Below are positions 31,630 to 64,000 of a DNA stretch of 64,000 nucleotides, in pieces (within the stretch, counting starts at the first letter, position 1; every line of letters begins with the position of its first letter). The stretch comes from a virus. Made by a program: the position numbers and the translations under genes. The notes beneath the pieces are model-generated. The model saw only the letters and a program-made list of their open reading frames with translations, did not search any database and was not told the origin of the DNA. Location of the stretch: positions 1 through 64,000 of IMG/VR virus record IMGVR_UViG_3300042880_000420; one strand, written 5' to 3'.

Positions 31630-34600
31630 TTATTTACATTTTCTTTTAATGTCAAGATAATTAACAAGTTTATTTGAGTCTAAATCAATTAGATTTTCCA
31701 AGAATGATTTAGTGGTTGATATTGATTTTAATTCTTCTGTTGTACTTGTTTCTTCAACACTTCTTGATGAAACAATTCCAATGATATTTTTAATACCTTC
31801 TTTTAACACCATTTCATCTTTAACAGTAATTCCAAGTGCCTCAAGAAGTTTAGCAAAGATATCAATAAATCTTTCAAGTAGAGACTTTTCTTCACTATAA
31901 GGAGTATTATTCATAAATGATCTGAATTCTTTATCAGTCATTAACATACTTGCAAATTCATTAATATTTGTCAATCCATAATAAAAAGACTTGTCTTTAA
32001 CAGATAAAACCCCGTCTTCTTTATTAACTTCATTTATTGCATTTCTTAAGTTTTCAGCATGTTTAGGATCTTTTAATATTCTTTCCTGTGTTGTTTTAAA
32101 AAGATTTTCTAAAGCCATCACCCATTTTCTTTGTTCAGGGGTAAGTTTGCTTTTATCCATTTCAATTATATTAACCGTAAGATGGTGCATTAATTCATGC
32201 ATTATAACATCTTGTAAAGCATTTATATTTTCAGGATCAGATTCAAATGCAAGTTTTGGATTTACTTTAATTATTTTTTCAAATTTATTGTAAGTTCCAG
32301 GATTTGCTAATGTTTCATCAATAATAATTTGAAGATTACCAACACCGCCTGTTTTTGATACTAATGAAAGTATTTCTTTATAAAAAGGTTCAGCATCTTT
32401 ATATAAATTATTAAGTGCTGTTTTTGTATTTGCTTTTTTATCTACTCCAAATATATTTGTAGTTGCTTCTTCTATCTGATTTGCAACCAATCCTTTTAAA
32501 AATATATCATCAAAATCTACTATTTCAATTTCTTGTTCTTCTTCAATTTCAACTATATCTGATTTTAATTCAGAACTTTTATTTAATGGTGCAGAATTAT
32601 TTGTGTCTGTTATAGCACCTAAAAATACTTCCTGATTATTTACTATATTAGAACCAGCAGGTTTAATAATAATTAATCTACCACTTGTTCTTGTAAGGGC
32701 AACATACATAGAACTAAATATATCGTCTTGATTTACATTAGCAGCAAGATTTCTTTTAATATTATAATCACCAACAATTACATTTTTAATACTATTACCT
32801 TGAGCTGTATGAGAAGATCCTATGTATGAAGGTACATAAGGAGGTGTAAATCTTTCATTTAATTCATCTAATTCCGATTTTAATTTAATATAATCTCCAT
32901 ATTTTAAATTAAACTTTGCAATGATTTCTCCTGTTTTGTTATTTTTAATTTCAATTCCTTCTTGTTGTTTTGTAATTGGATTATATTTACCATATGTAAA
33001 TTCTCCTGTTTTTGGATTTCTTTCTCCACTTATTTCAAAACCAAGTATTTTATGTATATGCCTAACTCTATTTTGTCTATTATAAACTATAGTGTGTTCA
33101 ACTTCTACTTTAGTTCCTTTGTTAAAATAACGCATTAAAGCTGGAGATACATAATTTTCAATATTTTCAAAATTAGAAAATACATCTAACACTTTGAATC
33201 TTGCACCTGGTTTTATTGCACCTTTTGTTATTTTATATTTACCATCTTGAACACGATATTTTTGTTGAGATAATATTTTTTCAATTTTATTATCACTTGG
33301 TGTATACTCATAATCACTTGTAGAAATTTCAACTTTACCATCAAAAATTATATAATCTTGATTAGTATATAATCTATGTGCTGGAGTTGATGAATCAATT
33401 TCCAATTTTCTAAAATATTCATTTCTTATTTTAGTTGCTATGTTTTTTGTATTTGCATGTTCAACATTATTGTAATGCACCCAAAACATTCCATATGGAT
33501 TATTATTATTAATTAAATAATCAGTGTAGTCATCTATCACTCCATTTTCATTTGTAACTACAAGCATGTTTTCTGTTGATTGATTTGTCAACTTATCATA
33601 ATTTTCAAATGATAATTTTTGAACAGCCGCACCAGATTGTAAATTATTAATATTTTTAATAATTTGATTTCCAATAGAATCATACATTTTGTGTAATTGT
33701 TCATTATCTGAACGCATCACTTGAGTTAATTCTTTAGTTTTATTTTTATCCAAAAGTAATGTAGAAGAAATAACACCTTTATTAACATCAGAAGATTGTT
33801 GTTCACCAATTGGTCCTAATTGTCTATAATCTCCCATAAATATAAATACAGGCAATCTACTTATTAATCCATTATTAAGATCTTGTTTTAATCTTAATAT
33901 CATATCTGAAATATCTTTTTTACCAATCATTGAACTTTCATCAACAATTATAATATCAGGTCTTCCCATTGAAGGTTTAAACTGAGTAGAATTTATATAC
34001 TCTTTTTCTGAAGCTAAAGATAAAATTCCATCCACCATTCTATTTCTTCTTGTGTGGGCGGCAATTGTATTAACAGTTCCATCATTAGCATATTCACTAT
34101 CAAGACCTAATGATTCTTGAAGCACCGTGCTTGCAGTATGTGTAGGAGCTAAATACATTATACTTGGTTGAGTATATTTACTTTTACCCTCTATAGCAGC
34201 CATTATAGCTTTAATAACAGTGGTTTTACCAACACCACCTCTACCAGCTAGTCCAATCATATTATTCCACATATCAACTGGAATCAATCCATTGAATTGC
34301 TTTGTAAGAGGAGATGTAAATATTACTGTTTCATCTAAATTCTCAGCTTTAATTTGTTTTTTATTAGCCAGTAATTCTTCAACTTTATTTTTAATAAAAT
34401 TAAATGCTTCTTGTTGTCCATCATTCATTAAATAAATAGTATCATCTGTTTCCATAATGACATTATTATTTGGATTAGAACCTTTAGGAACATTAATTCT
34501 TTTTTCTGGTTTAGCAAGTGTTTCCTCTATAACAGGTGTCGGTCTGGTTTCTTCTGTAAGTATTACAGGAACCTCTATTTCTGATTTATCATTATATAAT

Positions 34601-49522: not shown

Positions 49523-52500
49523 TTATTTAGTAGTATTAAATACACTATTATACTCTTTATCTAATTTATCTCTTAATTGTTTCTGAGCATAATTTAAATC
49601 TTGAACAGGTGTATATGTTCTTTTTAAAATAGTTGAATTTTCATAAGATTGTGTATTAACGCCTTTTCTTAATGCATCAATAAAATCTTCTACAGTGACT
49701 GTATTAGGCATATCAACAAATGATGTTTCATCATAATTTGTATTTCCAGTATAATCTTTCCAATTATATGTTAAAACATTATTTGTTGGATCTTGCTGTA
49801 CAATTTTATATCCTGCTTTAAATTTAATATTACCAGTTGTAATATCTTTATATATTTCATATTTTAATCCAAAGTCTTCATCTGTCTTTGAAGATTTGAC
49901 TGTTCCATTACTTAATAATAATGAATAAAAATGATCTTGATATGGATTAGGCATTCCAGGAACCATTGCCTCATTTCTAAGTTGAAAAGTTATTTCTCCA
50001 TTAAAAAAATCATACTTTGATCTATCTTTTTTATCAATATTTTTTAATAATTCGTCTTTATTATATGTAAAAGTAATATTTCTTTTTGTAGGATCAGGAC
50101 TTCCCATATTGTGATATTTAAGAGATGTCAATCCAGCAGCAGGATCAGAAACTATTTTTGTGATAAGTTTTTGAAGTTTATCTTGCTGGTCTTCATCATA
50201 TCCAACAATAACATATTTATCATCTTCTATATCTACAATATTATTAATATTTGTAAAAACTTGTTGTGCTATTCTATCTGCGTAATCTGTTCTATCAGTG
50301 GGACTAGACATGTATGTAATTGTCTTGCCCATTTTACCCGTTTCTTCACTGATTGTTTTTTGTAAATTTTCAGGAATAGCACTTTTAAGTAAACCATATC
50401 CTTTATCTAATTTTTTTCTAACTTCCTCAGGCTTTCCATAATCTCTTACAATACCCGTAATGTCATATGTTTGTCCATTTTTATCTGTTGCAGTATAACC
50501 TATAATAACTTTACTTTTTACTGAAATATTTGTTGTTGGTGATGTATATGTAATTTCTTCTTCATATATAGGTTCTGGCTTTAAGGTTCCATTTACATAT
50601 GCTTGTGCAATTTCTAAAGGAAGTTTAACGCGCTTATTATTTACAGTGAATTCACGAATATTACTTAAATTTTCAGCAGTGAATAAAAGACTCTTACCAT
50701 TTTTATCTTTAATGGTAATGTCTTTATATTTTTCAGGATTTTTTTCAACCTGTGCTGCAATTCGTTCATCATATTGCTTTCTTAAAGCATATGCATTATT
50801 TAGTTTATTTCTTGCAGATTGTAATTTAGTGTACGTCTGATAATTTGAATTAATTCTATTTTGTAAACTTGCATCATATTCATTTTTTGCAAGCATATCG
50901 TTTAAATTGTTTATATCCTTTTCAACCGTTTGAGAATAATAATCACTAACTGCTGACAAAGCAACTATTGGACCAGTGAGTTTAACAGGTTTAAGACCTG
51001 CTCCTTCTAATTTAGTATTTAATTTGCTTTCAACATCTTTTAATGTAGTCTGATAATCCTTACTCATTGTACTTGGGTCATTTGCAATTGCAGAAAAAAT
51101 GAACCCAACTTCTTGAGGTGAAATAACATCCTGTAACATATTAATAGGAACACTTTCTAATACAGATTTCATTTCCTGTAATCCAGTGGAATGCATACTA
51201 GTTATTGCAGAATTAAAAGTTTCAACATCTGACTCAATTTTATTTGCATTTGTTGTAGCAGTTACTGTAGGAATTATATTTTTTAAAGCAATTGGTTTTC
51301 CACTTGCATCATATTCTACATTTTCACCACCGCTTTCAATTGATTTTTTTGTTTCTTCCCAATTTTGTTTTCTAACATTAAGAGAATGTGTTTGTGCAAA
51401 TTCTGTTGCTTGACGTTGCTCAGATATATTATTCCAGTATGACTGATCTGTAGTAATTTCTAAAGATTGTTTACTTGCTGCACTCTTAGCAGCAACTTCC
51501 ATATCTTTATCCATTTTAAGATTTGCAAAAAATGCAGTGGGGCTAGTGCTAATTCTTTTTATTATTTCATCATATTTAATTTTATCTTCTTCATTTCCTA
51601 CACCTTTTGTTTTTAACAATGAAGTTTCTTTTTCTAATTCTTTTATTCTTTTATTTATTTCACCACCTTGTGTAATATATTGTGAATATAAATCTTCATT
51701 GCTATTTCTTGCGTTATCTGCATTAGTTTGTGCAATAATACGACTATCTTTTAAATACTTAATTTTATCATCATAACTTTTTATTTGTTGATCAATATGA
51801 TATTTTGGAAGCATAGATATTGCTTCTTCATCAGATATTTCAACACCTTTAAATTTTCTTTCATCATCTTTTATATCTTGAATACCTTGAATTTTAAAAT
51901 ATTCACCGTACATACTATATTGATCATTTGCAGATTCGCCTAAATATGTTTTAAACAAATCAGCAAAAGATTTATATAATCCGTCTCCATTTACTTGTTT
52001 ATAAATACGACCATTTTGCGACCAACTTAATTCTTGTTTCCATTCATTTTTTTTAATCCAATCCTGAAATTCTTTTGGATGATTTTGTAACGGTGTTGCT
52101 TTTATTAAAGGCACTTGATTAATAATATCAGGATCATCTGCTGTTTTAATTTTATTCATATAATAATTCATCACCGTAATAGGTGTATTATTATCATAGT
52201 CAGGATGTTCTTTTTTAATTTTTTCTTGTTCTGCTAATTGAGCATATCTACTTTTTGTATCTGCTATATGAGCTAACATTGTTTTATCCTCCCAAAAAGG
52301 AGAATATAAATTTTCAGCAGAATCTACATTTGATTGGATGGAAAGATCTGTAGTGCTGATTGTTTTTAATTGATCTTTAATTTGATTCAAATAATCATCT
52401 CTTCTTTTGCTATATTTATCATTTAATATTGGTGTATTTAATATACTTTTAAATCCTTGTGAAATTTGTTCATAATTAGTTTCATACCTAGCTGTTGCCT

Positions 52501-52591
52501 TTTGTAAAGCATTTGCTAAGTATGGAAAATTAGGAGTGTATTGTACAGGATTAAAACCGTTATCTGTAACACCAGGCAAATATGTACTCAT
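49523..52591 (-). CDS. Virion internal/ejection protein
   Basis: 1022 aa, no Cys, coiled-coil rich, within the virion module. Confidence 0.7.
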   Translation of the reverse strand: MSTYLPGVTDNGFNPVQYTPNFPYLANALQKATARYETNYEQISQGFKSILNTPILNDKYSKRRDDYLNQIKDQLKTISTTDLSIQSNVDSAENLYSPFWEDKTMLAHIADTKSRYAQLAEQEKIKKEHPDYDNNTPITVMNYYMNKIKTADDPDIINQVPLIKATPLQNHPKEFQDWIKKNEWKQELSWSQNGRIYKQVNGDGLYKSFADLFKTYLGESANDQYSMYGEYFKIQGIQDIKDDERKFKGVEISDEEAISMLPKYHIDQQIKSYDDKIKYLKDSRIIAQTNADNARNSNEDLYSQYITQGGEINKRIKELEKETSLLKTKGVGNEEDKIKYDEIIKRISTSPTAFFANLKMDKDMEVAAKSAASKQSLEITTDQSYWNNISEQRQATEFAQTHSLNVRKQNWEETKKSIESGGENVEYDASGKPIALKNIIPTVTATTNANKIESDVETFNSAITSMHSTGLQEMKSVLESVPINMLQDVISPQEVGFIFSAIANDPSTMSKDYQTTLKDVESKLNTKLEGAGLKPVKLTGPIVALSAVSDYYSQTVEKDINNLNDMLAKNEYDASLQNRINSNYQTYTKLQSARNKLNNAYALRKQYDERIAAQVEKNPEKYKDITIKDKNGKSLLFTAENLSNIREFTVNNKRVKLPLEIAQAYVNGTLKPEPIYEEEITYTSPTTNISVKSKVIIGYTATDKNGQTYDITGIVRDYGKPEEVRKKLDKGYGLLKSAIPENLQKTISEETGKMGKTITYMSSPTDRTDYADRIAQQVFTNINNIVDIEDDKYVIVGYDEDQQDKLQKLITKIVSDPAAGLTSLKYHNMGSPDPTKRNITFTYNKDELLKNIDKKDRSKYDFFNGEITFQLRNEAMVPGMPNPYQDHFYSLLLSNGTVKSSKTDEDFGLKYEIYKDITTGNIKFKAGYKIVQQDPTNNVLTYNWKDYTGNTNYDETSFVDMPNTVTVEDFIDALRKGVNTQSYENSTILKRTYTPVQDLNYAQKQLRDKLDKEYNSVFNTTK

Positions 52592-52658: not shown

Positions 52659-54713
52659 TTATACTTGATTTCTAGACTTTCTCCTTCTTGTTTGGTCATT
52701 CGTCATTCCTTGTTGCATTTTCATATAATCTAGATAATCACTTACACTCATATCAGCATCTTTTGCTGCTTGTGCAATATCTTTTGCACTCATTTTTTCT
52801 GTATCAGATTGACTATTAAAAAATGCCTGCATAGATTTAGGACTATGAAAATATATAGTTCCAGTTCCAGGTCTAACACCATAATAAGGACTTTCAGTCA
52901 AACTCGTATTATAAAGATTAGCTGCATTTCTTTGACCTTGTGTATAAGCTTGCAAAACACCTGTACGTGCTTGTCTCATTGCATTTTGATATTGTTGTTC
53001 ATTAATTACACCAGCATCATATAAACGTTTAGTACGTTGTGCATCATATGCTATTTGTTTATTAGTAATATCAGCTGCTTGACTAGCTGCTGCATTTCCT
53101 AATTGAACATTTAAATTAGATGTTTTTCCAATGGCATTTGCTACACTAGCAAGTTCTTGACCAACAGGAACTGTTCCTAAATTTTGTTTTCCTGCAAACA
53201 TGTTACGTGCTTGTCTATTTGAATTTGCTATTTCATTAATAGCAGCTAATTCTCTAGCTGAATCATAATATCTTGTTTCAGGTCTTTGAAATTTAACAGT
53301 AGGTTCAAAAGGTGTAAATCTTCTTACACCAGTTAAATTTTTAAGTGAATTTAAAAGAATTGCATTATCAGGATTTGTCCAACCATATTTAATTGGAGAT
53401 CTATTATATGTCGTTATATCATTATTTTTAATTTTACTTTCATTATCAAAATTAAAAGTATAAGGATTATTTTTTAAATAATTATGTAATAATACATTAG
53501 AACCAATAAGATTACCATCTTTATCAGTAAATTTACTTTTTTGTTTTTCTTCATCTGAAAACAAACTAGCATTTTGAAGTCTATTTATTCCTTGTTGATT
53601 TTGTTCTAAAGCCGTTTGATAATCAAAAGATTTTGTAAAATCAGGAACATCAGATTGTGGAATTGTTAATTCGTATGGATTTTTCTTACTATTAATTTTT
53701 GAAGATAGATTAATTCCATTAGTTATGTTATCACTTTCCACCTCACTTCCTTCTTCATCACCAATATATCTTTTTAAATTCATACCACCATATTTCATTC
53801 TACCACCATACATCATATCACCACCATACATTGCTTCCTGTGGGTTTTCTTCCATTTGTTCTTGAGATTCAACATCAGAAGCTTGCATCATCTTTGCATA
53901 ATATTCTTGTGCAATATTGGGAATACCTTGCGGATATCCTTTCTTACCTTCTTGTACAAGAGCAAGTTGTGCTAATTTCTTATTATAATTTTGAATCATC
54001 AGCTCTGCTGTACGTTTCTTAATAGAATCAGCTCTAGGATCTTCAAGTATAGCTTTATATTTATTAAGATCATATTGTTTAGCTATTTGTGCCGGAGTAA
54101 ATTTTTTAGATGATTTTTCAGACTTACCAAATACGCTAAGAACAGAACCACCAAGTTTCATCTTCTTTGTATCAGAAAAAATAAATGTACCTTCAGGAAC
54201 ATTTAATGGTACACCACCTTGCGTATGTCTTTTACCTTTTATATTGTAATGACTTTTAGTTCCATCTTCTTTTGGAATTACAGCAGTTTCACCACCTTCT
54301 GCTTCAATATTTGCATGCTCTCTTGGAACAGCAGACAACGTATTATTAACATCTAACTCTTCATCAGTATCTTGATTCATCCAAAGTCTTCTAGAACCAA
54401 GATCTAATCCATATCCCATTTGACCACCATAAGCAGCAGTTTGCATATCATATCCCATATTAGAATTTTGGTCTTGTGATTCAACACCTTGCAATTCTTG
54501 ATACATTTGCATAATGGTTTGTTTTTGTTCTTCTTCTCCCATTTGTTGAAGTTGTTGAACAATTTGTTGTGCATCAACACCATTAGCTTCAGCAAATGCT
54601 TGTATAACTTGCATAATTTGCTCTTGAGGATTACCACTTTGTTGTTGCATTGTCATATCTCCACCATCTTGATATTTAGCAGGATACTTTTTTATTTTGA
54701 CTTTGTATTTCAT
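52659..54713 (-). CDS. Virion cargo protein with repeated xxxGG motifs
   Basis: 684 aa; Q-rich N-terminus; ANIEAEGGE...GKRHTQGGV block; MYGG repeats. Confidence 0.7.
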   Translation of the reverse strand: MKYKVKIKKYPAKYQDGGDMTMQQQSGNPQEQIMQVIQAFAEANGVDAQQIVQQLQQMGEEEQKQTIMQMYQELQGVESQDQNSNMGYDMQTAAYGGQMGYGLDLGSRRLWMNQDTDEELDVNNTLSAVPREHANIEAEGGETAVIPKEDGTKSHYNIKGKRHTQGGVPLNVPEGTFIFSDTKKMKLGGSVLSVFGKSEKSSKKFTPAQIAKQYDLNKYKAILEDPRADSIKKRTAELMIQNYNKKLAQLALVQEGKKGYPQGIPNIAQEYYAKMMQASDVESQEQMEENPQEAMYGGDMMYGGRMKYGGMNLKRYIGDEEGSEVESDNITNGINLSSKINSKKNPYELTIPQSDVPDFTKSFDYQTALEQNQQGINRLQNASLFSDEEKQKSKFTDKDGNLIGSNVLLHNYLKNNPYTFNFDNESKIKNNDITTYNRSPIKYGWTNPDNAILLNSLKNLTGVRRFTPFEPTVKFQRPETRYYDSARELAAINEIANSNRQARNMFAGKQNLGTVPVGQELASVANAIGKTSNLNVQLGNAAASQAADITNKQIAYDAQRTKRLYDAGVINEQQYQNAMRQARTGVLQAYTQGQRNAANLYNTSLTESPYYGVRPGTGTIYFHSPKSMQAFFNSQSDTEKMSAKDIAQAAKDADMSVSDYLDYMKMQQGMTNDQTRRRKSRNQV
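53784..53828 (-). repeat. 18-bp-period tandem repeat encoding AMYGG-DMMYGG-RMKYGG
   Basis: + strand ACCACCATA at 53784, 53802 and 53820. Confidence 0.75.
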
Positions 54714-54723
54714 TATTGTAAAT

Positions 54724-57207
54724 TTAATCTAAAAATTCTAACTGACCACCAGCTTTTAAAAATTGTTGAATTTGATCTTCATCCATTTCTACCACCTGTC
54801 CACCAAGTTGTTCTCCACCGTTTTTAAAAACACCAGCTTGCTGTAGTTTTTTATACATTTTAGCAGATTCACTTTTTACTTGTCTTTTAAGAAGTTCTCT
54901 TCTTTGTGCTAAAGTTATTTGTTTTAAAGTTTTATTTCTTAATTCTGGATATATTTCTACACCATAACCTTTACTATTAATTGTACCATCTTTATTAACA
55001 CCACCACTCCATTTCTTTAAAGCATAATTTATATCTGTGTTAGGTTCATAATATTTACTATCAAATATTCCATCCACTTCACCAAACATTAAAGTTTCTC
55101 TAGCATTAAGTCCTGCTTCCAATGTAGGAAAAGCTGCAAAATATCCGGGACCATCTGTTTGTTTAATCGGAGATTTTACTGCTCCAAATTTTGAAAACAC
55201 AGGATTATAAATAATATTACCTGGATTATTAAGTTTTGTTGCAACATCTTTTTCATTAGGATTGGGAATACTAGGCCCAGCAGAATAATTTCTAGTTGGT
55301 CTAACAACTGCTCTTGTATTATCTATAGTTTTTGTATCATTTACAATTGGTTTAGAAATTTTAACATAATCTTTTAGAGAAACAACAATGGGCATGTTTT
55401 TCATAAGTTCAAGTGGACTACTAATTGGAGCAGCTAATTGTGGACTTGCAAATAAATTGCTAAATCCACCACCAACTTGATAACTAGGAACTTCCATACC
55501 ATACTTACCGTACATACCTTTATAAGAAAATGTACCTGTATTATAAGGTTTAAATGCACCATATGTAGAACCTGTTACACCATAATCACCTTTACTAGAA
55601 CCTTGAGGATTTGTAAACATAGCTGCTGTACTACCCATATTCATAGCAGCAGCATCCATATTTCTTTTTCTATTTCTTTCGTTTAATACATTACCAATAG
55701 TACCAGCAAGTTCTACACCAGTTTGCATTGTATTTGCAATTTTACCAGCAGTTCTACCAAACTTCTGTATATCTGTTTGACCTGTTCTAAATCTAGCACC
55801 TTTTCCTTCTTCTTTAAGTTGTTCCCAAAGTTCAGGATCTTGTTTCTTTATGTTAGTTAATTGTTTATTATCTTTAGACCATGTAGTAAAACCTGTATTT
55901 GGATCTACCGCATTACTGTATTGACTTGAATCAAAAGGTTCAATATTTTGTTGTTCTTCATCATACTGCTCTTCATCCATATTTAATCCACCAAGGTCAG
56001 GACTTTCATATAATTCATTTCTTCTATTTCTCCTACTACCGTTTACTCCGTCACCATATATTCCAGATTCTTGATTTTCATCTTCAATATCATATTGGAA
56101 ATTTGTATCAATGTTGTACGAACCATCGCCAGAAGCAGACCAAGATTGTCCAGCAGAAACATCTACAGGACTACCTGATGTGGGAGGTGTAGATGATGTT
56201 ACTGTAGAACCTTCTTGAAAATAATATCCACTACCTGGTACATATGTACCAGAGTCTGTATTTCTATGAAACTTACCATCCATTCCATAATACCCACCTT
56301 TTTTAAACATAGTTCTCATTGCGGGAAATATAGCAGTACCACCTTTTTCATACATGCCTCCACATTCATAACAAGGTTGACCACCTTGTTTCATTTTAGA
56401 AACATAATTAATAAGCTCGTTATTTTGTGTAGCACTACCCGTATAATTTTTTAAACCATATGATTCAGCAAGTTTTTTTCTTTCTGCAAATGAACTGTCT
56501 TTACCTTTTGATTTTAATAAATCAACAATGCTTGAATACTTATTTAATGGTGTAGAATAAGATGCACCAATAGCCCCCACTTCACGCATTGTTTGTGCGG
56601 GAGACATTGTAGATTGCAATGTTTTAGCAGCACCAAAATCTTTTAAAGGTACAGTTTGTAAATTATTCTTAATTAATTCTTTAGGAAGATTATAATTATT
56701 TACAATAGGTGCTAAAACTTTAAGAGGTTGCAATGTTTTACTTCTATCTATATAAGGAGTATTAGCTGCCATTCCAGGTCTTGACCACATACCAGTAGAT
56801 GTTTGCCATCCTGTGGTAGGTTGATTGCTTGCATATCCTTCAAAATCAGGATTGATATATCCGCCAGGTTCATTTACAGTAGGTATTTTATCAAAAGTTT
56901 CAACCATTGGACCAATAGCTCTACCCATTCTGTCAAATGATCTAGGTCTTTTAAAAGTACCAGATTCATCACGTACCATTGGTTGTAGTTGTGGAGTATA
57001 ATTAATCATACCTACATTTCCTTGTGTATTAACTCCAACTCTATTACGTAAATTTTCAGGAATTTCTACATTTATTCCATTTTGTGCTTCCATTAATTCA
57101 CCACACATATCGGGGTAGTCTGAACAAAAAGATGCTTGATCAGGATATTGATTATAAAAATCATCTTCTGATAATCCTGTTAATTCTAAAATACTTTGTT
57201 TATTCAT
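54724..57207 (-). CDS. Modular virion cargo protein with DUF3597-like and NNPGNI lysozyme-like modules and GG motifs
   Basis: 827 aa; SIVDLLKSKGKDSSFAERKKLA...YTGSATQN; LNNPGNI...FAAFPTLEAG. Confidence 0.7.
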   Translation of the reverse strand: MNKQSILELTGLSEDDFYNQYPDQASFCSDYPDMCGELMEAQNGINVEIPENLRNRVGVNTQGNVGMINYTPQLQPMVRDESGTFKRPRSFDRMGRAIGPMVETFDKIPTVNEPGGYINPDFEGYASNQPTTGWQTSTGMWSRPGMAANTPYIDRSKTLQPLKVLAPIVNNYNLPKELIKNNLQTVPLKDFGAAKTLQSTMSPAQTMREVGAIGASYSTPLNKYSSIVDLLKSKGKDSSFAERKKLAESYGLKNYTGSATQNNELINYVSKMKQGGQPCYECGGMYEKGGTAIFPAMRTMFKKGGYYGMDGKFHRNTDSGTYVPGSGYYFQEGSTVTSSTPPTSGSPVDVSAGQSWSASGDGSYNIDTNFQYDIEDENQESGIYGDGVNGSRRNRRNELYESPDLGGLNMDEEQYDEEQQNIEPFDSSQYSNAVDPNTGFTTWSKDNKQLTNIKKQDPELWEQLKEEGKGARFRTGQTDIQKFGRTAGKIANTMQTGVELAGTIGNVLNERNRKRNMDAAAMNMGSTAAMFTNPQGSSKGDYGVTGSTYGAFKPYNTGTFSYKGMYGKYGMEVPSYQVGGGFSNLFASPQLAAPISSPLELMKNMPIVVSLKDYVKISKPIVNDTKTIDNTRAVVRPTRNYSAGPSIPNPNEKDVATKLNNPGNIIYNPVFSKFGAVKSPIKQTDGPGYFAAFPTLEAGLNARETLMFGEVDGIFDSKYYEPNTDINYALKKWSGGVNKDGTINSKGYGVEIYPELRNKTLKQITLAQRRELLKRQVKSESAKMYKKLQQAGVFKNGGEQLGGQVVEMDEDQIQQFLKAGGQLEFLD

Positions 57208-57211
57208 ATTA

Positions 57212-57228
57212 TAAACTTTTAAAGTTTA
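57212..57228. promoter_or_regulatory. Palindrome TAAACTTTTAAAGTTTA, operator-like
   Basis: Immediately upstream of the ATG at 57207; matches the 52642 palindrome. Confidence 0.45.
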
Positions 57229-57282
57229 ATTATTTTATATTAAACTATATATTATTAATTTACTTAATTTTATTGAGATGTC

Positions 57283-60200
57283 CTAATTTTTAAGATATTC
57301 TAACCAATTTTTATTATCTTTCTTAACAATAGGATTTAATGTAGATTGACCACCTATTGCAAACGTTTGTCCACCTTCTTCCCAAGTACCAAATCTTTTA
57401 TGCCAGTATAAAGGACTAAATGGATCTGTTGCTTTAGAACTGTTTTTACCACCCATTCTATTCCAGAAGTTTTCTCTTCTTTGTTCAGAATGGTGTTGTT
57501 TAAAATCTTGCATTCCTTTATATCCACCATGTACTACTTTATAATCATCACCTTTTTTAGCTAACACCATCCATTTTTTACCTGGTCTTGTACTTTGTTT
57601 TTTTGCACCTACACTAGTAAAGCCCATGTTTCTATATCTTTCTGGAATACCACCACCTTCAGCATAATTTGTATCTATAAAACTATTACCTCCTCTTGGT
57701 GCATAATGATGCTCACCTATATAATTTTGATCAACAACCCCTTCACTATCACCCATAAATTCTTGTCTTATAAAATTACCTTTTCTATCATATATATCTA
57801 CAGGATAAGTTCTTGGCTGTATTAAATTTGTTAAATTTACAGTTTGTTTTGGAGAAATTGGAAGTAATTCAGCACGTGTTACAATTTTAGGGTTAATTAA
57901 AGTAGGTGCTACCATTTCTAATCTTTTTAAATTAGTTTTTGGATGCACAAAAGTATTTATATTTGCAAATATAGGTAAATGATTATTATATTTATCTACA
58001 TGATTAGGATCAATACCTATCATAGTAGGATATTTTTTTTTCATATTATTCCAATAATTTATATCCACATCATTTTGTAACCACATTTTAGGTTTAGTTT
58101 GTCCTCCTGGTCCATACATAGAAATACCACCATATTCCATTTCTTCTATTGGAAGTTCCATCATTCCTTTAGTTTCAGGATTATACATCATATAATCAGA
58201 TACTGAATTTGCATAATCATCTACCATAGTAAGTTTAGAACTAACCCATGGTTCTAAATCAGAATTTGGTTGAATAAACTTACGAAGATTAGTTAGTTTA
58301 TTAATAGCAGCATCAATTTGACCAATAGCCATTTCACCATCAGGTTCCCCTCCACTACCATACATAGGAACATTCCCACCATTTTTATAATTCATACCAT
58401 ACATATCATTAGCTGCACGTTTATATCCTTTAGCCGCAAAATAATCAGCTATATCTTCTGTTGGAGTTTTAATATATTCTTGTCTTTGATCAGGTTGATA
58501 TATTAGTTGTCCAGGTGCTGTTCTTAACATAGTTGAATTATTTCTTAATGGATTAGAAAATGTTTCTATAATAGTAGGAGATACATAATTATCTCCAAAC
58601 CCCATTAATAAAGTAGACATATCATTACTATTAGGATTTTCTCCATCAATATATTTTGTAGGAATACCATTTTGATTACCAAATCCAGCAGCACGTTGCA
58701 TAAAATTTTTATCTTGATTTCTTTGTAATAAAACTTTAGAAATAGCATCCATGCTTGGATCATTTACCATAGGTTTTTTTGTTCTCCAATAAACTTCTTC
58801 TTCACCTCCATCTTGATAATGACTTTTAATTTTTCTTTCTTGATCCAACATTTGTTTTGTTGGTACTTTACCAGATCCTCTGTTATCCCTGATATTATCC
58901 CATAATCCACGTTTAGAATATGAACCATCTGCACGTTTAATCATTTCTCCACCTTGTTCTTTTTTAGGATAATATATTCTATTATATATTGAATACGGCA
59001 TACCTTTTGTTCTTTTTTGAGCAAAATCTTTTAAATCATATCTATCATAATATGATAAGTAATCCCCTTGTTTATCACGACCTCTACTAACACCAAATCT
59101 ACCTAATAAACCAGCTCCATCTTTTCCACTTATAGGGGTTTCAATTTCTGATTCATCCGTTTGTAAAATTTCTTTAAGTTTTACTTTATCTTTATACGAA
59201 TTAAATATATCTTGTTCAAGCTGAGGATCTACAGTATAATAATTTTTATCTACAGCATTAATTGTTGGTATATATTTAGATTTTTTTAAATACTTTAATT
59301 CATCTGGTGTACTTAAACCTAAATAAAATTTAAATGCTTCTTCACTTCTGGGGTCATAAGATTCCTCCCTTTGTTCATCCGAAACCCATCTTCCATAATT
59401 GCGTAAATCAAGATAACTAGAAGGATTAATTGTACGATAGGCTTTTTGTCTTTGAGGTAATGTTTCAGCAGGAAATGTTCTACTATTATAATTATTATAA
59501 GCATCTACATATGCTTTTTTTAAATTAGAAATAAACCCTCCTCCTCCTTGCATCATAGGATACTCTGTAACTGGAGCTTGGTTAAATGTATAATCACCTT
59601 CAGGTTGCATCATAATTTCTTGACCATCTGCACCAACTCCTAACACTGGATAGTTTACATCACGCATTGTAATATTAGGACTATCAATTTGTGTCACTTT
59701 ACCTGGATGAGCCCATTGTCCTCTGTTGTCTTTTATTACCCCACCTTCTCTCATCTTAATATCACCACCACATTTATGACATGTCATAGGTTCCATTCCA
59801 CCATCAGATAATTTCCATGACCAACCACAATTAGAACATGTTACTTTTCTATTTAGTGAATTTTTTGATACTAATCCACCATTTTTTCTTGAATCAATTA
59901 TTGTTTCAGCACCTAATGTTCCTAACAATCCTCTATTAAAATTAACTCCTCTCATTATTACAGGATTTGTAGCTTGATTAACATAAGGAGTTAAATGAAT
60001 ATATTCTCCACTTCTATTTCCTAAATTTGCTATTTTATTAGCATATGAACCTGGAGTTGTATTCCACATATCTCTTTTATATCCATAATTTTCAATAACT
60101 TTTGGTAAAAAAGCAGATGCAAAATTAATACCAGCACTTCCATAATTACCTTCTGCTACATCCATACCACCTTGAAATGCATCAATACCAGTACCTAAAA

Positions 60201-60525
60201 CATTTCCCCATTTTCCTACAAGTTGAGCTTGCGGGATAGGTATAAAATTACCTACCTGCATTATATCAGTTAATATATCAGCTCCTTTTACTGCTGATTT
60301 TACATTTTTTTTTAATGCATATGCTTTTCTATCTGCTTCACTAAGTGCTCTTCTTCCTGGAGTATCAGCATATCTATCTTCATTAAAAGAATAATACTTT
60401 GGTTGAGGAAGTCTGTTGCGAAACATTTCCTCTTCTGAAATAACTAAAGGCTTCCTATATGATGTATTATCTGATATAGGTACTACTTGTCTTCCATCTT
60501 GATATTTATCTAACCACTTTTTCAT
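57283..60525 (-). CDS. Modular virion cargo protein of about 12 modules separated by (Y/F/M/W)xxGG motifs
   Basis: 1080 aa; includes a Zn-ribbon CSNC...CHKC and several short unrelated modules. Confidence 0.7.
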   Translation of the reverse strand: MKKWLDKYQDGRQVVPISDNTSYRKPLVISEEEMFRNRLPQPKYYSFNEDRYADTPGRRALSEADRKAYALKKNVKSAVKGADILTDIMQVGNFIPIPQAQLVGKWGNVLGTGIDAFQGGMDVAEGNYGSAGINFASAFLPKVIENYGYKRDMWNTTPGSYANKIANLGNRSGEYIHLTPYVNQATNPVIMRGVNFNRGLLGTLGAETIIDSRKNGGLVSKNSLNRKVTCSNCGWSWKLSDGGMEPMTCHKCGGDIKMREGGVIKDNRGQWAHPGKVTQIDSPNITMRDVNYPVLGVGADGQEIMMQPEGDYTFNQAPVTEYPMMQGGGGFISNLKKAYVDAYNNYNSRTFPAETLPQRQKAYRTINPSSYLDLRNYGRWVSDEQREESYDPRSEEAFKFYLGLSTPDELKYLKKSKYIPTINAVDKNYYTVDPQLEQDIFNSYKDKVKLKEILQTDESEIETPISGKDGAGLLGRFGVSRGRDKQGDYLSYYDRYDLKDFAQKRTKGMPYSIYNRIYYPKKEQGGEMIKRADGSYSKRGLWDNIRDNRGSGKVPTKQMLDQERKIKSHYQDGGEEEVYWRTKKPMVNDPSMDAISKVLLQRNQDKNFMQRAAGFGNQNGIPTKYIDGENPNSNDMSTLLMGFGDNYVSPTIIETFSNPLRNNSTMLRTAPGQLIYQPDQRQEYIKTPTEDIADYFAAKGYKRAANDMYGMNYKNGGNVPMYGSGGEPDGEMAIGQIDAAINKLTNLRKFIQPNSDLEPWVSSKLTMVDDYANSVSDYMMYNPETKGMMELPIEEMEYGGISMYGPGGQTKPKMWLQNDVDINYWNNMKKKYPTMIGIDPNHVDKYNNHLPIFANINTFVHPKTNLKRLEMVAPTLINPKIVTRAELLPISPKQTVNLTNLIQPRTYPVDIYDRKGNFIRQEFMGDSEGVVDQNYIGEHHYAPRGGNSFIDTNYAEGGGIPERYRNMGFTSVGAKKQSTRPGKKWMVLAKKGDDYKVVHGGYKGMQDFKQHHSEQRRENFWNRMGGKNSSKATDPFSPLYWHKRFGTWEEGGQTFAIGGQSTLNPIVKKDNKNWLEYLKN

Positions 60526-60531
60526 TTACTA

Positions 60532-63500
60532 TTATTTTTGAGATATTTGAAGTTTTGTATTAATAAATTTGAATATCATTTTAATATCCCCTCTTCCATC
60601 TACACCTTCTTTTCTTATTTCTGGAGGATTCTTTCTAAGAAGCACCTTGCTTACATTGTGTCTAAATTTCTTTTTCTGTGTAGACGACTTATAATAATCT
60701 ACACTAAAAGGATTTACAAACCAGTTATATCCATTAGGAAATGTTGTTGTAAGAATATTTTCGACACCACTAAATTCTCCTCTGTCTTTTGTAATATCAT
60801 TAAACTGATTAAATCTATATTTTTGTTCTTCTTTAGAGAATAATATTTCTGTAGATCCTGTAGGATTAATTATTGGATAATTAAGATATTGGAAAGGATT
60901 AGACTTAGATTTTAAATTAAGATTAAGCAATCCAGATATTTGTTCTGAGTTATAAACAATAGCTGAATCAAAGTTATAATCTAATAAATGAAACTTATCT
61001 TGTCCATTAGCACTATACTTATATGCTTCTAAATAATATTCTACATTACGCATTGTAGTAACAGTAGTTCCTGTTGGAAATGCATATTCTATTTCAAATG
61101 GATGATAGGTACCATAAAAATTACAAAAATCATCCCATCTGTCGTTATGTCTCCACAATCCAGTTTGTGTTTGAAAACAAGTTTTATATGCTGTATAAAA
61201 ATGTCTCTTAGAAGGAAGCATAAATGTAGGATGCCAATCATGAAAACTAATCCATTGTTTATTCTTTACATCATAAGAAATAGTCCAAGATGCATCTTCA
61301 AAATATGCAGGGTCACATAATGAAATAGGAATTTTAGAAAAAACACTAACAGGAGGAAGTATTTCTGTGTTATATTCTAAAGATTCTGTTAATGTATATA
61401 CACACACAGGTTCTTCCACACCATATGTATATTCTAAAACACCAGCACCTGAACAAGTATATTCATAATCTATAAATTCAGATTTATCATTTGTTGTAAA
61501 TATTACATTAAGATCAGAAAATGAAGTTGCATTTAATATTTCAAATTGTGTATTATCTATTAATGCAGCACCAAATCCTTCATAGGAGCCCTCAAGCTTT
61601 AATGTGTTGTTAACTTCAGTTATCTGTATAGGATAGATATGAAGATATGTATTAGATACATCATCACCAGATGAACCCGGAAGTCTACTATCAGCATTCA
61701 TTGCAGCAAGATCTGGATCTAATATTACCTGACCATTTAATGTAATTCTAAAATTAGTATATGCTGTAGTAGGGTCTACACTATAAGAACATATTGCAAC
61801 ATAATAAATCTTTTCATTAGGTACATTATTCAAATAAATATTATATGTAATTGTATCATTAGGAATACCAGATGTAGCTGTTGTCTTAATCATTAGATAG
61901 TTTACAGGTCCATCTGAAGATGTTCCTGTATCATTAATCCAAAAATTATTAAGTTGTCCAATATTAGTGTATGTACCAACAGCTGAACCATTATATCCAA
62001 GATCATACAATGCAGTTCCTAATGTGCCATATGTTACACTTCCTAAAGGTTCTGTAGAATAATTAGTTGTAGATATTACAGGTGGCTCTGTTGTAACTTG
62101 TTGACATTGACCATTTATATACTGATATCCAGGAGGACAGTCATATGTATATAATGGCTCTACATTAACATTTATATTTCCATTATTTAAATAAAATCCA
62201 AATGCAGGATCGTATTGTATATCATTACGTTTTGGTATATAGTCTCTTTTAGAAAAATATACCACCTCATTAATATTGTCATATACAGTTGTTATACCAG
62301 CACCAATAACAGGATTATCACTTAAATTAAAATTAGGAAAATAATTAATAAGTTGTAAAGGAAGATATCTGCTAAACCACCATTTCATATTTGATTTAGA
62401 AATTTCTTCAAGTTGTCCCGTGTATGCAAAAATCTTACCTTGGTCTTGACTTACATAGAATACACCATAAGGTGTAGATGTAATACCCCATCTGCTTTGA
62501 CATGAACCATATTCATATATTTGGTCTGAATTAACAAGACTCTGTAAAGGTTGATTAAATAATCCTCCATCTCCAATTGTTACTTTAATTCCTGTATCTG
62601 TTTGTAAACTATCAACACCCATAATTTGCATTGGGGATTGTCTATCTAACATTATTAAAGCACCTGTTTTATTTATTTGTTTTACAGAAGTAACTTTAGT
62701 AGGCATGTCTTTATAGTTATTAACTAAAAAACTTTGCCAATTATCACGTTTAAGTTCTTCTTGTTGCGGTAAAGAATATTGAATTCTTCTTGGATAATAA
62801 GTGTAACATGTAGCCGCTACAAGTGGATTAAATGAACGTGGTAAAACTTGACCCCATGTAACAAATTGATTATACATTCTAGATACAGAAAGAGAATAAT
62901 CATACTTATAAAATGCTGAAAATTTTACATAATCGCTTCTAAATAATGTAACAAGGTCTGTGTATCCATAAGGATCATAAAATCTTTTGCTTGCTTCATC
63001 TTCCCAATCTCTATATCCAACATTCACTTCAGATTCTACAAAAAAATCTCTTACACCATTGCAAAATAAATAAAAGTTAGCAGCATCTACTTTCCAACCA
63101 GGATCGCCATTATAATCTTTACCAACAATAGTACCTCCTTTGTTAAGTCTATAATATTTTTTAGGGCTTATTAAAATAGAATTGTCCACATATTGTTTTC
63201 TATTATCTACAAAATAATATGTACCGACAATATTTTGATATTGTAAATAGTTATATGTAACATCTTCCGGTTGTTCAATAAGCCAATCATTAAAATATAA
63301 ATAATTATTTTTCTCTGTGTACCGGTTTAAATATATGTCACCACCGAATAATATTGGTACTTCATTTATTGTATATACACAACTAGAAATGGGAATTTGT
63401 CTAATAGAATCAATCTGCCCATACTGCGATGCAAAATCTACTTTAATTGCACCATAATTAGATGATATTGTTCTTGTAAAACAATCCCCATTTACACCTA

Positions 63501-63999
63501 ATATATTTTTAGAATCATCTACAATACCAGGATTAGGCATTGCTGAATTTAATTTCATAATTATATATGGATTTCTATATAAATTATTTACAGAAAGTCC
63601 GTCAAATGATTGCACACTATCTTTTATATATCCATAATCAGATGTTGAAATTGTACTTGTTGTTGGGTTAAATGAGTTGTAAAATCCATGTGAATTAAAC
63701 TGTGCGGCTAATTGCTCAGGTCCAATTAATGATGTAACAAGTTCTGCTAATTTTTGTCCATTTGCTTTTAATCCTACAGCAATTTGCCATGCGGCTGTTA
63801 TCACTGTATTTGCAAAAATTCTAGCAATATATGATGCATTTCCAAATGTGTCTGGAGCTGAACCTATATTTACACCTAGTGTTAAATTATAAGGCATATC
63901 TGAATTACCTTGAACAGTAATTGGTTCAGCACCTAAAGCAGCACTAAGAGTTTGAAATGCAGCTACTGTAATTGCAAAAATATTAACTAAATCAGCACT
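60532..63999 (-). CDS. Tail stabilization/muzzle-like structural protein, 5'-truncated by the window
   Basis: Frame is open to the window edge; FGGDIYLNRY, SWTISY...WISFHDWHP beta-propeller-type tail signature. Confidence 0.75.
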   Translation of the reverse strand, partial: SADLVNIFAITVAAFQTLSAALGAEPITVQGNSDMPYNLTLGVNIGSAPDTFGNASYIARIFANTVITAAWQIAVGLKANGQKLAELVTSLIGPEQLAAQFNSHGFYNSFNPTTSTISTSDYGYIKDSVQSFDGLSVNNLYRNPYIIMKLNSAMPNPGIVDDSKNILGVNGDCFTRTISSNYGAIKVDFASQYGQIDSIRQIPISSCVYTINEVPILFGGDIYLNRYTEKNNYLYFNDWLIEQPEDVTYNYLQYQNIVGTYYFVDNRKQYVDNSILISPKKYYRLNKGGTIVGKDYNGDPGWKVDAANFYLFCNGVRDFFVESEVNVGYRDWEDEASKRFYDPYGYTDLVTLFRSDYVKFSAFYKYDYSLSVSRMYNQFVTWGQVLPRSFNPLVAATCYTYYPRRIQYSLPQQEELKRDNWQSFLVNNYKDMPTKVTSVKQINKTGALIMLDRQSPMQIMGVDSLQTDTGIKVTIGDGGLFNQPLQSLVNSDQIYEYGSCQSRWGITSTPYGVFYVSQDQGKIFAYTGQLEEISKSNMKWWFSRYLPLQLINYFPNFNLSDNPVIGAGITTVYDNINEVVYFSKRDYIPKRNDIQYDPAFGFYLNNGNINVNVEPLYTYDCPPGYQYINGQCQQVTTEPPVISTTNYSTEPLGSVTYGTLGTALYDLGYNGSAVGTYTNIGQLNNFWINDTGTSSDGPVNYLMIKTTATSGIPNDTITYNIYLNNVPNEKIYYVAICSYSVDPTTAYTNFRITLNGQVILDPDLAAMNADSRLPGSSGDDVSNTYLHIYPIQITEVNNTLKLEGSYEGFGAALIDNTQFEILNATSFSDLNVIFTTNDKSEFIDYEYTCSGAGVLEYTYGVEEPVCVYTLTESLEYNTEILPPVSVFSKIPISLCDPAYFEDASWTISYDVKNKQWISFHDWHPTFMLPSKRHFYTAYKTCFQTQTGLWRHNDRWDDFCNFYGTYHPFEIEYAFPTGTTVTTMRNVEYYLEAYKYSANGQDKFHLLDYNFDSAIVYNSEQISGLLNLNLKSKSNPFQYLNYPIINPTGSTEILFSKEEQKYRFNQFNDITKDRGEFSGVENILTTTFPNGYNWFVNPFSVDYYKSSTQKKKFRHNVSKVLLRKNPPEIRKEGVDGRGDIKMIFKFINTKLQISQK

Positions 64000-64000
64000 A

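Follow-up and report, generated by a model that had tools for sequence, protein, structure and literature searches.

Crassviruses are among the most abundant phages known, and their particles carry megadaltons of protein for injection. In crAss001, the muzzle gene is followed by the genes of the cargo proteins C1 (gp45) and C2 (gp46) and then by RNA-polymerase-associated giants; cryo-electron microscopy (cryo-EM) resolved few short cargo pieces, those of C1 being docked on the muzzle, the tail rings and the portal, with residues 214-245 on the rings and 425-552 on the portal wing (PMC10172136). The subject of this work is a comparable gene block in the viral record IMGVR_UViG_3300042880_000420, positions 1 to 64,000 of which form the window (the whole stretch of 64,000 nucleotides that was analyzed). 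Three neighboring open reading frames (ORFs) in it, P0001, P0002 and P0003, are studded with a recurrent peptide ending in Gly-Gly, which we will refer to as the “joint.” The gene class is already known; the alternation of modules and joints, or joint grammar, appears from the literature searched to be its new part.

Several described systems share features with this arrangement. Prohead proteases cut packaged head proteins (T4 gp21 at L/I-x-E, phiKZ gp175 and SPN3US gp245 at S/A/G-x-E), and the proteases of adenovirus and African swine fever virus (ASFV) process at GG-X. As in prohead-protease substrates, a short consensus recurs in the putative cargo proteins, and N-terminal leaders are placed like the T4 capsid-targeting sequences; on the other hand, the consensus differs from those of the prohead and GG-X systems in register and residue class, and no protease of those families was found in the genome. 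Polyvalent proteins are large, delivered with the DNA and composed of unrelated cassette-like domains, and their processing into units has been proposed (PMC5512222). P0001, with about 10 modules, is likewise a chain of unrelated cassette-like domains, whose delivery would follow from its gene position; however, the hallmark zincin MPTase of polyvalent proteins is absent from P0001-P0003, and PF18818 has no match in the genome. The virion RNA polymerase (RNAP) of phage N4, an ejection protein, has been pictured as globular units with flexible linkers, able to pass the tail (PMC13434306). Globular units joined by flexible linkers are also proposed here, although in N4 the linkers are long and a conserved joint motif is not among their reported features (PMC13434306), and the proteins are unrelated to P0001-P0003.

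With crAss001 C1 (Protein Data Bank, PDB, 7QOG chain M) the likeness extends to the gene position and to an N-terminus of the same MxKKKIK...P....GG type as that of P0003; C1 is a chain of great length, most of it unresolved, of which short pieces are docked at separate places. Nonetheless, crAss001 has one such protein, with about five loose joints and three strict motifs (1.4 expected), whereas the phage studied here has three, with 21 strict motifs, tandem clusters, WLDKY handles at the protein ends and many more modules. The joint motif is not mentioned in the crAss001 cryo-EM paper (PMC10172136), the words “crAss” and “linker” are absent from PMC5512222, which means that a conserved joint peptide does not figure there under either term, and joint grammar was found neither in these two papers nor by literature searches, which is no proof that no description exists.

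A Gly-Gly motif private to three neighboring genes

The motif was defined as [YFMW]xxGG, and its expectation was taken from composition-preserving shuffles of each protein. P0001, P0002 and P0003 hold 11, 6 and 4 copies, where 1.5, 1.2 and 0.5 are expected (p <= 0.0025 each); pooled, this amounts to 21 motifs versus 3.13 (Poisson p 2.5e-11), and the other 88 ORFs of the genome with at least 100 amino acids (aa) hold 12 versus 12.6. The motif is real, strongly enriched and, within the genome, private to the three cargo genes. All 26 pentapeptides that a sequence-only reading of this DNA had listed are present in their places. Gly content alone is not sufficient to explain the motif count, since the shuffles fall so far below the count seen and the other ORFs stand at expectation. 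The neighbors on both sides lack the signal, with one motif versus 1.4 expected in the 1796-aa ORF upstream and none versus 0.2 in the 1022-aa protein downstream, and the giants that follow have one each, as expected.

Two scans of viral contigs provided 39 related loci, and the enrichment recurs in all 39, solely in the 2-3 ORFs situated between the muzzle-like gene and those for the ~1000-aa and giant proteins; in a set of 26 related loci it is likewise confined to the 2-3 ORFs that precede the RNA-polymerase-subunit genes. Across 73 such cargo-position proteins (63,952 aa), Gly-Gly occurs 13.2 times per 1000 aa (8.8 expected), versus 4.3 (4.4 expected) in 69 large controls encoded in those loci. 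A database search with P0001 returned 1213 homologues, the best 120 of which carry 1153 motifs versus 174 expected.

The register of the motif is strict. Met, Tyr or Phe is enriched 6.05x three residues before the first Gly, that is, with two residues between, and 1.24x in the x-GG register, with one residue between, where Met/Leu/Ile reach 1.14x; Leu, Ile and Val are depleted at the preferred position (0.68x). In the cargo proteins, position -3 from the first Gly is occupied by Met in 22% (6x), Tyr in 16% (3.3x), Phe in 9% and His in 5% of cases, Gln, Ala and Lys are enriched at -2, Pro is enriched 2.2x at -5, and Ile, Val and Thr are enriched at the second residue after the GG. No flank signal surrounds GG in the 69 control proteins. 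The joint consensus is approximately P-x-x-[M/Y/F]-x-x-G-G, either single or in tandem, and the tandem spacing is sharp, with 80 of 406 gaps at 6-9 residues and none at 3-5. Neither the Gly codons nor the neighboring codons are conserved at the joints; since codons vary there, selection acts on the peptide and not on the DNA.

The genomic setting is that of a phage with low guanine-plus-cytosine content (~28% in the window), whose parent record is a 109-kb uncultured virus, 91% complete. On the minus strand, a long late operon runs from the 1796-aa ORF through ORFs of 1080, 827, 684, 1022, 1769, 4187 and 1173 aa. The first of these matches a PHROG “virion structural protein” (E 6e-32) and, in a weak but significant BLASTP match, the crAss001 muzzle gp44 (E 8e-6). 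Because the gene order around the muzzle matches that of crAss001, the three motif-rich ORFs correspond to the cargo (ejection-protein) position of a crAss-like phage: like the Crassvirales cargo genes of the gp45/gp46 type, they follow the muzzle-like gene and precede the virion RNAP-subunit genes, all on one strand. Judging from this position, the three proteins are most likely packed into the particle and injected. BLASTP gave no significant match between the 1022-aa protein and crAss001 gp46, and no match came from searching GenBank phages by tblastn with P0001 and P0003.

Joints at the borders of exchangeable modules

When the 73 cargo-position proteins are compared between different loci, 29% of the ends of BLAST high-scoring segment pairs (HSPs) fall within 3 aa of a motif, versus 5.6% in the null; part of this signal is expected, since motif aligns with motif, and the effect size and the per-protein maps agree. 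HSPs end exactly on the second Gly in 297 of 1885 cases, and their starts peak at the bulky -3 residue. The earlier proposal that the motifs fall at the borders of unrelated blocks is borne out by these peaks, and the coordinates then given for a Zn ribbon (59765-59850), a DUF3597-like block (56405-56535) and a basic block (57380-57650) fit, the basic block matching Pfam DUF5754 in P0001 (E 2e-8) and the DUF3597-like block matching DUF3597 in P0002 (E 1e-8). In P0001, the HSP borders against the 120 homologues coincide with joints and delimit ~10 blocks, each ending at a joint (Table 1), among which DUF5754 is the most widely shared, being covered by ~100 of the 120. The joints are better kept than their surroundings: 83-100% of the aligned homologues retain both Gly and 88-100% retain the bulky residue, versus 47-80% identity in the flanking columns, and in a 30-sequence alignment G1051 and G1052 (WEEGG) are the sole invariant columns of P0001, with G1058/G1059 nearly invariant.

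These observations bear on the reading that the whole pattern is a by-product, either of Gly-rich composition, of low complexity or of a DNA-level recombination signal leaving a peptide scar. Gly does make up a somewhat high share of the cargo proteins (7.5-10.5%) and modules do recombine at joints, as such a reading would have it, but the shuffles give 3.1 motifs for the 21 observed, the control proteins have no flank signal, and conservation is higher at the joint residues than beside them. We consider this reading highly improbable; it is largely refuted by the shuffles, the controls, the codons and the conservation taken together. Its DNA-level version in particular was rejected, as the codons at the joints vary.

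Blocks of P0001-P0003 recur in relatives in other orders, in other ORFs and in other combinations, and the homologues of P0001 combine DUF5754, PF19197, DUF3597, hydrolase-type domains and LysM in many orders. Where the AlphaFold2 (AF2) models are confident, they place folded cores between the joints and the joints in segments with a predicted local distance difference test (pLDDT) below 50. The sole confident part of the full-length P0001 model is module 3 (262-324, pLDDT 71-88), with flanks (256-261 and 325-348) below 50 that hold MREGG and MMQGGGG; the mean over the whole model is 38.7, and the best fold-search score is Z 5.2, the matches that span 261-330 standing at Z <= 5.

Some of the homologues of P0001 (P0017, P0023, P0053, P0056, P0066, P0075, and P0096) carry peptidoglycan-active modules between the same joints, the inserted modules being glucosaminidase (PF01832), amidase_2 (PF01510), SLT (PF01464), YkuD (PF03734) and LysM (PF01476). 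Such a mix is as expected of envelope-breaching ejection proteins. No recognizable hydrolase domain is present in P0001, P0002 or P0003 of the window.

In P0002, the NNPGNI block had been taken for “lysozyme-like,” a label which its lack of any Pfam, NCBIfam or PDB sequence match does not uphold. Its nearest clusters in the ESM Atlas are stand-alone viral proteins of 108-137 aa with no assigned function, and therefore the block exists also as an independent small gene.

P0003 was compared with crAss001 C1. The AF2 model of a segment of the protein gives its core (segment residues 40-200) a pLDDT above 90 and both motif-bearing flanks one below 50, and alignment A1 shows M-A-Y-G-G-Q on one side of the core and A-A-Y-G-G on the other. 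VIA-align superposes this core on 7qog_M (gp45 432-552) with Z 5.6 and a root-mean-square deviation of 4.7 Å over 97 of 126 residues at 19% identity; in the exhaustive VIA search the entry ranks 46, the higher rows being generic helical hairpins of ~60 residues. The profile comparison of P0003 with gp45 by hhalign aligns FIFSD, TPA.IAK and LA.VQE at E 0.008 but with a probability of 4.8%. BLASTP between the two is not significant, a profile search of PDB sequences was also negative, and Foldseek of the core returned nothing at E <= 0.001. P0003 is a probable counterpart of C1, a homology that is not proven, and the structural match is suggestive of its core as a candidate portal-wing-binding domain.

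crAss001 gp45 contains A[YF]GG-type joints at 209, 332, 427 and 562, together with AEGGG at 263, and such joints stand on both sides of each piece resolved by cryo-EM (214-245 and 425-552). The second piece begins A-F-G-G-W-L, so that the positionally equivalent joint AFGG (425-428) belongs to a stretch which is reported as a single resolved piece (PMC10172136). In Cellulophaga phage phi14:2, g068-g070 show little or no motif enrichment.

Joints also accumulate near the protein ends. One lies within the first 30 residues of 17 of the 73 cargo ORFs (versus 2 of the 69 controls), and one within the last 35 residues of 28 (versus none). The first cargo protein starts with MKKWLDKY-xx-GG and ends with GG-WLDKY-[NKQ]-stop in many relatives; WLxKY stands at its residues 3-4 or 16 in 13 loci, and WL[DS]KY stands at both extreme ends of this ORF in loci L010, L011, L012, L013, L017, L019, L029, and L033. 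Overall, WLxKY is found 29 times in cargo proteins versus 3 times in controls, and the full unit GG-WLxKY-xx-GG is internal in a few relatives. In P0001, the N-terminal handle is predicted to be helical with low confidence. The paired terminal WLxKY might serve in head-to-tail contacts, or attach twice to a single site. The third cargo protein starts with MK.K.KIK..P...GG, as crAss001 gp45 does. In the relatives’ second cargo protein, a C-terminal peptide of ~25 aa always follows directly after a joint and is paired with a conserved N-terminus, MK..FLKIAGVK..EFY.KYP..FF.AHPE; by their sequences, these conserved ends look like fixed handles around a variable middle.

Possible hinging, docking or cutting at the joints

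The reading that we put first, and to which we give about an even chance of being correct, takes the joints to be hinges or handles that stay uncut, in ejection proteins built like beads on a string. The three cargo proteins would be stored within the capsid and tail and expelled before the DNA, each being a chain of small self-folding modules (the Zn ribbon, the beta-sandwich, DUF5754, DUF3597 and the probable portal-binding core, joined in relatives by peptidoglycan hydrolase domains). An uncut Gly-Gly joint would be a flexible hinge: the modules would fold singly, dock at their own sites along the portal and tail lumen, as the C1 pieces of crAss001 do, and unfold and thread through the narrow channel one after another. 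Half-joints, or “handles,” would cap the ends (MKKWLDKY..GG and GGWLDKYN in the first protein, MK.K.KIK..P...GG in the third). As the joint would insulate the modules from each other, their gain, loss and moves among the three genes would be harmless, which would account for the mosaic seen in relatives.

In its favor are the gene position shared with gp45/gp46, the restriction of the motif to these ORFs, its specific flank profile, the HSP borders on it, the conservation of the joint residues, the varying codons, the folded cores predicted between low-confidence joints, the joints around the docked C1 pieces (AFGG within one of them) and the envelope-active domains of homologues. Several points weigh against it. 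Packaging and the uncut state are both inferred for this phage; the structural link to crAss001 C1 is weak (the Z of 5.6 and the hhalign values given above); crAss001 and phi14:2 show the motif far more weakly, so that the behavior of crAss001 may not transfer; and most of the P0001 model is of low confidence (the mean pLDDT of 38.7). Furthermore, a plain hinge needs no conserved Met/Tyr/Phe, no upstream Pro, no tandem copies and no copies at 7-19 residues from the N-terminus or 6-30 from the C-terminus. The Met/Tyr/Phe preference, the tandem arrays and the terminal copies hint that the joint is also recognized by a partner.

That hint is taken further by a reading of the joints as multivalent docking “stickers,” which we hold to be unlikely. 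An exposed aromatic residue or Met on a Gly-Gly hinge would attach either to a site that recurs on the portal, the tail rings, the muzzle or the inner capsid, or to other joints. The procapsid would in this way be loaded with cargo, the cargo kept together as a cohesive body free of DNA, and its sequence of ejection fixed. The selection of Met/Tyr/Phe with depletion of Leu/Ile/Val is typical of exposed binding residues rather than of core packing, and multivalent binding also agrees with the 6-9-residue spacing of the tandem arrays, with the joints near either end of the proteins and with the WLxKY that the first cargo protein has at its start and at its end. In crAss001, short cargo segments are docked on the muzzle, rings and portal, and AFGGWL starts the portal-bound piece; yet most joints fall there in the unresolved stretches between docked pieces, with the modules doing the docking.

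Cutting would have different consequences, and as a reading of the joints it is unlikely. They would be the cleavage sites of a maturation protease (of an unrecognized phage family, or of the host), and the three ORFs would be polyproteins, split into ~20 small proteins or peptides either within the head or once injected, with leaders such as MKKWLDKYQDGG (MKKWLDKY..GG type) as capsid-targeting propeptides like the T4 internal-protein leaders. The terminal joints (17 and 28 of the 73 cargo ORFs, versus 2 and 0 of the 69 controls) would indeed be leader-like and tail-like, and the modules behave as independent units which also occur as stand-alone small proteins. Precedent is provided by the prohead proteases of T4 (gp21), phiKZ and SPN3US, which cut packaged head proteins. 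For polyvalent proteins, proteolytic processing has been proposed (Iyer et al., 2017; PMC5512222).

Cutting at the joints is nevertheless unsupported, because the register differs, the Pfam searches were negative, the one zincin-like domain of the genome has homologues in 5 of 12 relatives, and AFGG lies inside one resolved piece of crAss001. The (M/L/I)xGG consensus to which the sequence-only reading had appealed does not describe these joints, as Met/Leu/Ile is enriched 1.14x at x-GG and Met/Tyr/Phe 6.05x one residue further out. Sites of this kind would have a polar P4 and the bulky residue at P5, with M/Y/F and not L/I/V, and this register and residue choice are unlike every GG-directed protease consensus known to us. 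Moreover, tandem sites 6-9 aa apart would release useless hexapeptides. The search of the rest of the genome for a protease, which had been suggested on the same occasion, came back empty for nine Pfam models, C5 (adenain), C48 (Ulp1), C39, S78, S77, ClpP, S49, M23, and MPTase-PolyVal, none of which matches the 109-kb genome; C5 and C48 have no match at E <= 1 in this 91% complete genome where control genomes respond, although a very divergent protease could escape. Nor did PHROG annotate a protease among the 20 structural-module ORFs scanned. From that first interpretation, the probable virion proteins in cargo position, the reshuffled unrelated modules and the motif as their border are retained; its protease-site branch is not supported, and its docking-tag branch is kept as a rival.

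A zincin-like segment, HELMH (HExxH), is present at the C-terminus of the 4187-aa protein (31633-32400), with weak similarity to Peptidase_M1 and SprT-like proteins (E ~0.1). Clear homologues, always at the end of the giant protein, occur in 5 of 12 near-complete relatives, and joints occur in all 12; with the domain missing from seven motif-bearing relatives, it is unlikely to be the joint protease. Separately, none of 12 predicted tryptic masses of gp45 appears in the part of the crAss001 gel-band peak lists that was consulted (PMC6235969), which has no bearing on cutting either way.

Read as uncut hinges and handles, the joints would supply a module-joint-module grammar with which otherwise unannotatable proteins can be parsed into functional units; this grammar would predict which parts are flexible and which are docked, and would explain the free exchange of envelope-breaching and host-takeover modules. 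If the joints were instead cut or docking, they would represent a new maturation or loading code and a handle for loading foreign cargo into particles; and if they were cut, a large crAss-like clade would derive its injected arsenal from three polyproteins, by a Gly-Gly code of which tailed phages offer no known example.

Coordinates and accessory features

Table 1. Features of the putative cargo genes and their borders; nucleotide positions refer to the window, residues to the protein named.
Feature	Position	Strand	Residues or length	Remarks
Muzzle-like tail protein	60532-65922 (60532..64000 inside the window)	-	1796 aa	Extends past window end; upstream border of the cargo block
Putative cargo protein P0001	57283..60525	-	1080 aa	~10 modules separated by joints
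P0001 N-terminal handle, MKKWLDKYQDGR	60490..60525	-		Degenerate copy of the relatives’ WLDKY-xx-GG unit
P0001 counterparts of the WLxKY ends	60505-60516 and 57286-57309			Reading MKKWLDKYQDGR and NWLEYLKN
P0001 HSP block			1-217	N-terminal block
P0001 HSP block			210-264	Zn ribbon
P0001 HSP block			257-329	Small beta-sandwich
P0001 HSP blocks			349-534, 519-574, 570-720, 716-812, 860-960	
P0001 HSP block			954-1059	DUF5754
P0001 HSP block			1040-1080	C-terminal handle
P0001 modules between joints			1-217, 218-257, 263-323, 331-521, 527-569, 575-712, 727-795, 809-953, 960-1047, 1060-1080	218-257, Zn ribbon; 960-1047, DUF5754
P0001 module 3 (DNRGQWAHPG block)	59557..59739	-	263-323	Small beta-sandwich between MREGG and MMQGGGG
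P0001 DUF5754 module	57385..57648	-	960-1047	PF19058, E 2e-8; between YAEGGG and WEEGG
P0001 double joint WEEGG-QT-FAIGG and C-terminal handle	57286..57384	-		Handle ends NWLEYLKN
Putative cargo protein P0002	54724..57207	-	827 aa	DUF3597 and NNPGNI modules between conserved termini
P0002 order, first part				Conserved N-terminal handle; DUF3597 (210-270); joint cluster MKQGG/YECGG/YEKGG/FKKGG (272-305); low-complexity stretch
P0002 order, continued				YQVGGG; NNPGNI module (582-793); FKNGG/EQLGG; conserved C-terminal peptide (804-827)
P0002 NNPGNI module	54829-55464		582-793	
P0002 C-terminal peptide	54727-54798	-	804-827	In relatives, motif + VGQEMEVTPEQLEQLR.QGY.FEI[IL]-stop
Putative cargo protein P0003	52659..54713	-	684 aa	Conserved core flanked by joints
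P0003 order, first part				N-terminal handle MKYKVKIKKYPAKYQDGG; Gln-rich stretch; joint AAYGG (93-97); core (124-284)
P0003 order, continued				Triple joint AMYGG-MMYGG-MKYGG (294-310); C-terminal domain
P0003 folded core	53862..54344	-	124-284	Candidate portal-wing-binding domain
1022-aa protein	49523..52591	-	1022 aa	Downstream border of the motif-rich block, followed by giants of 1769, 4187 and 1173 aa

The stretch of P0003 between its N-terminal handle and its first internal joint (aa 19-91, 54440-54659) is Gln-rich, of low complexity and probably helical, and a similar Q-rich segment opens a cargo ORF in the relative L035. Beyond the window, an ORF for an HNH endonuclease (PHROG E 7e-14; genome positions 78624-79250, minus strand) is situated within the structural gene block, and may be a homing-type insertion.

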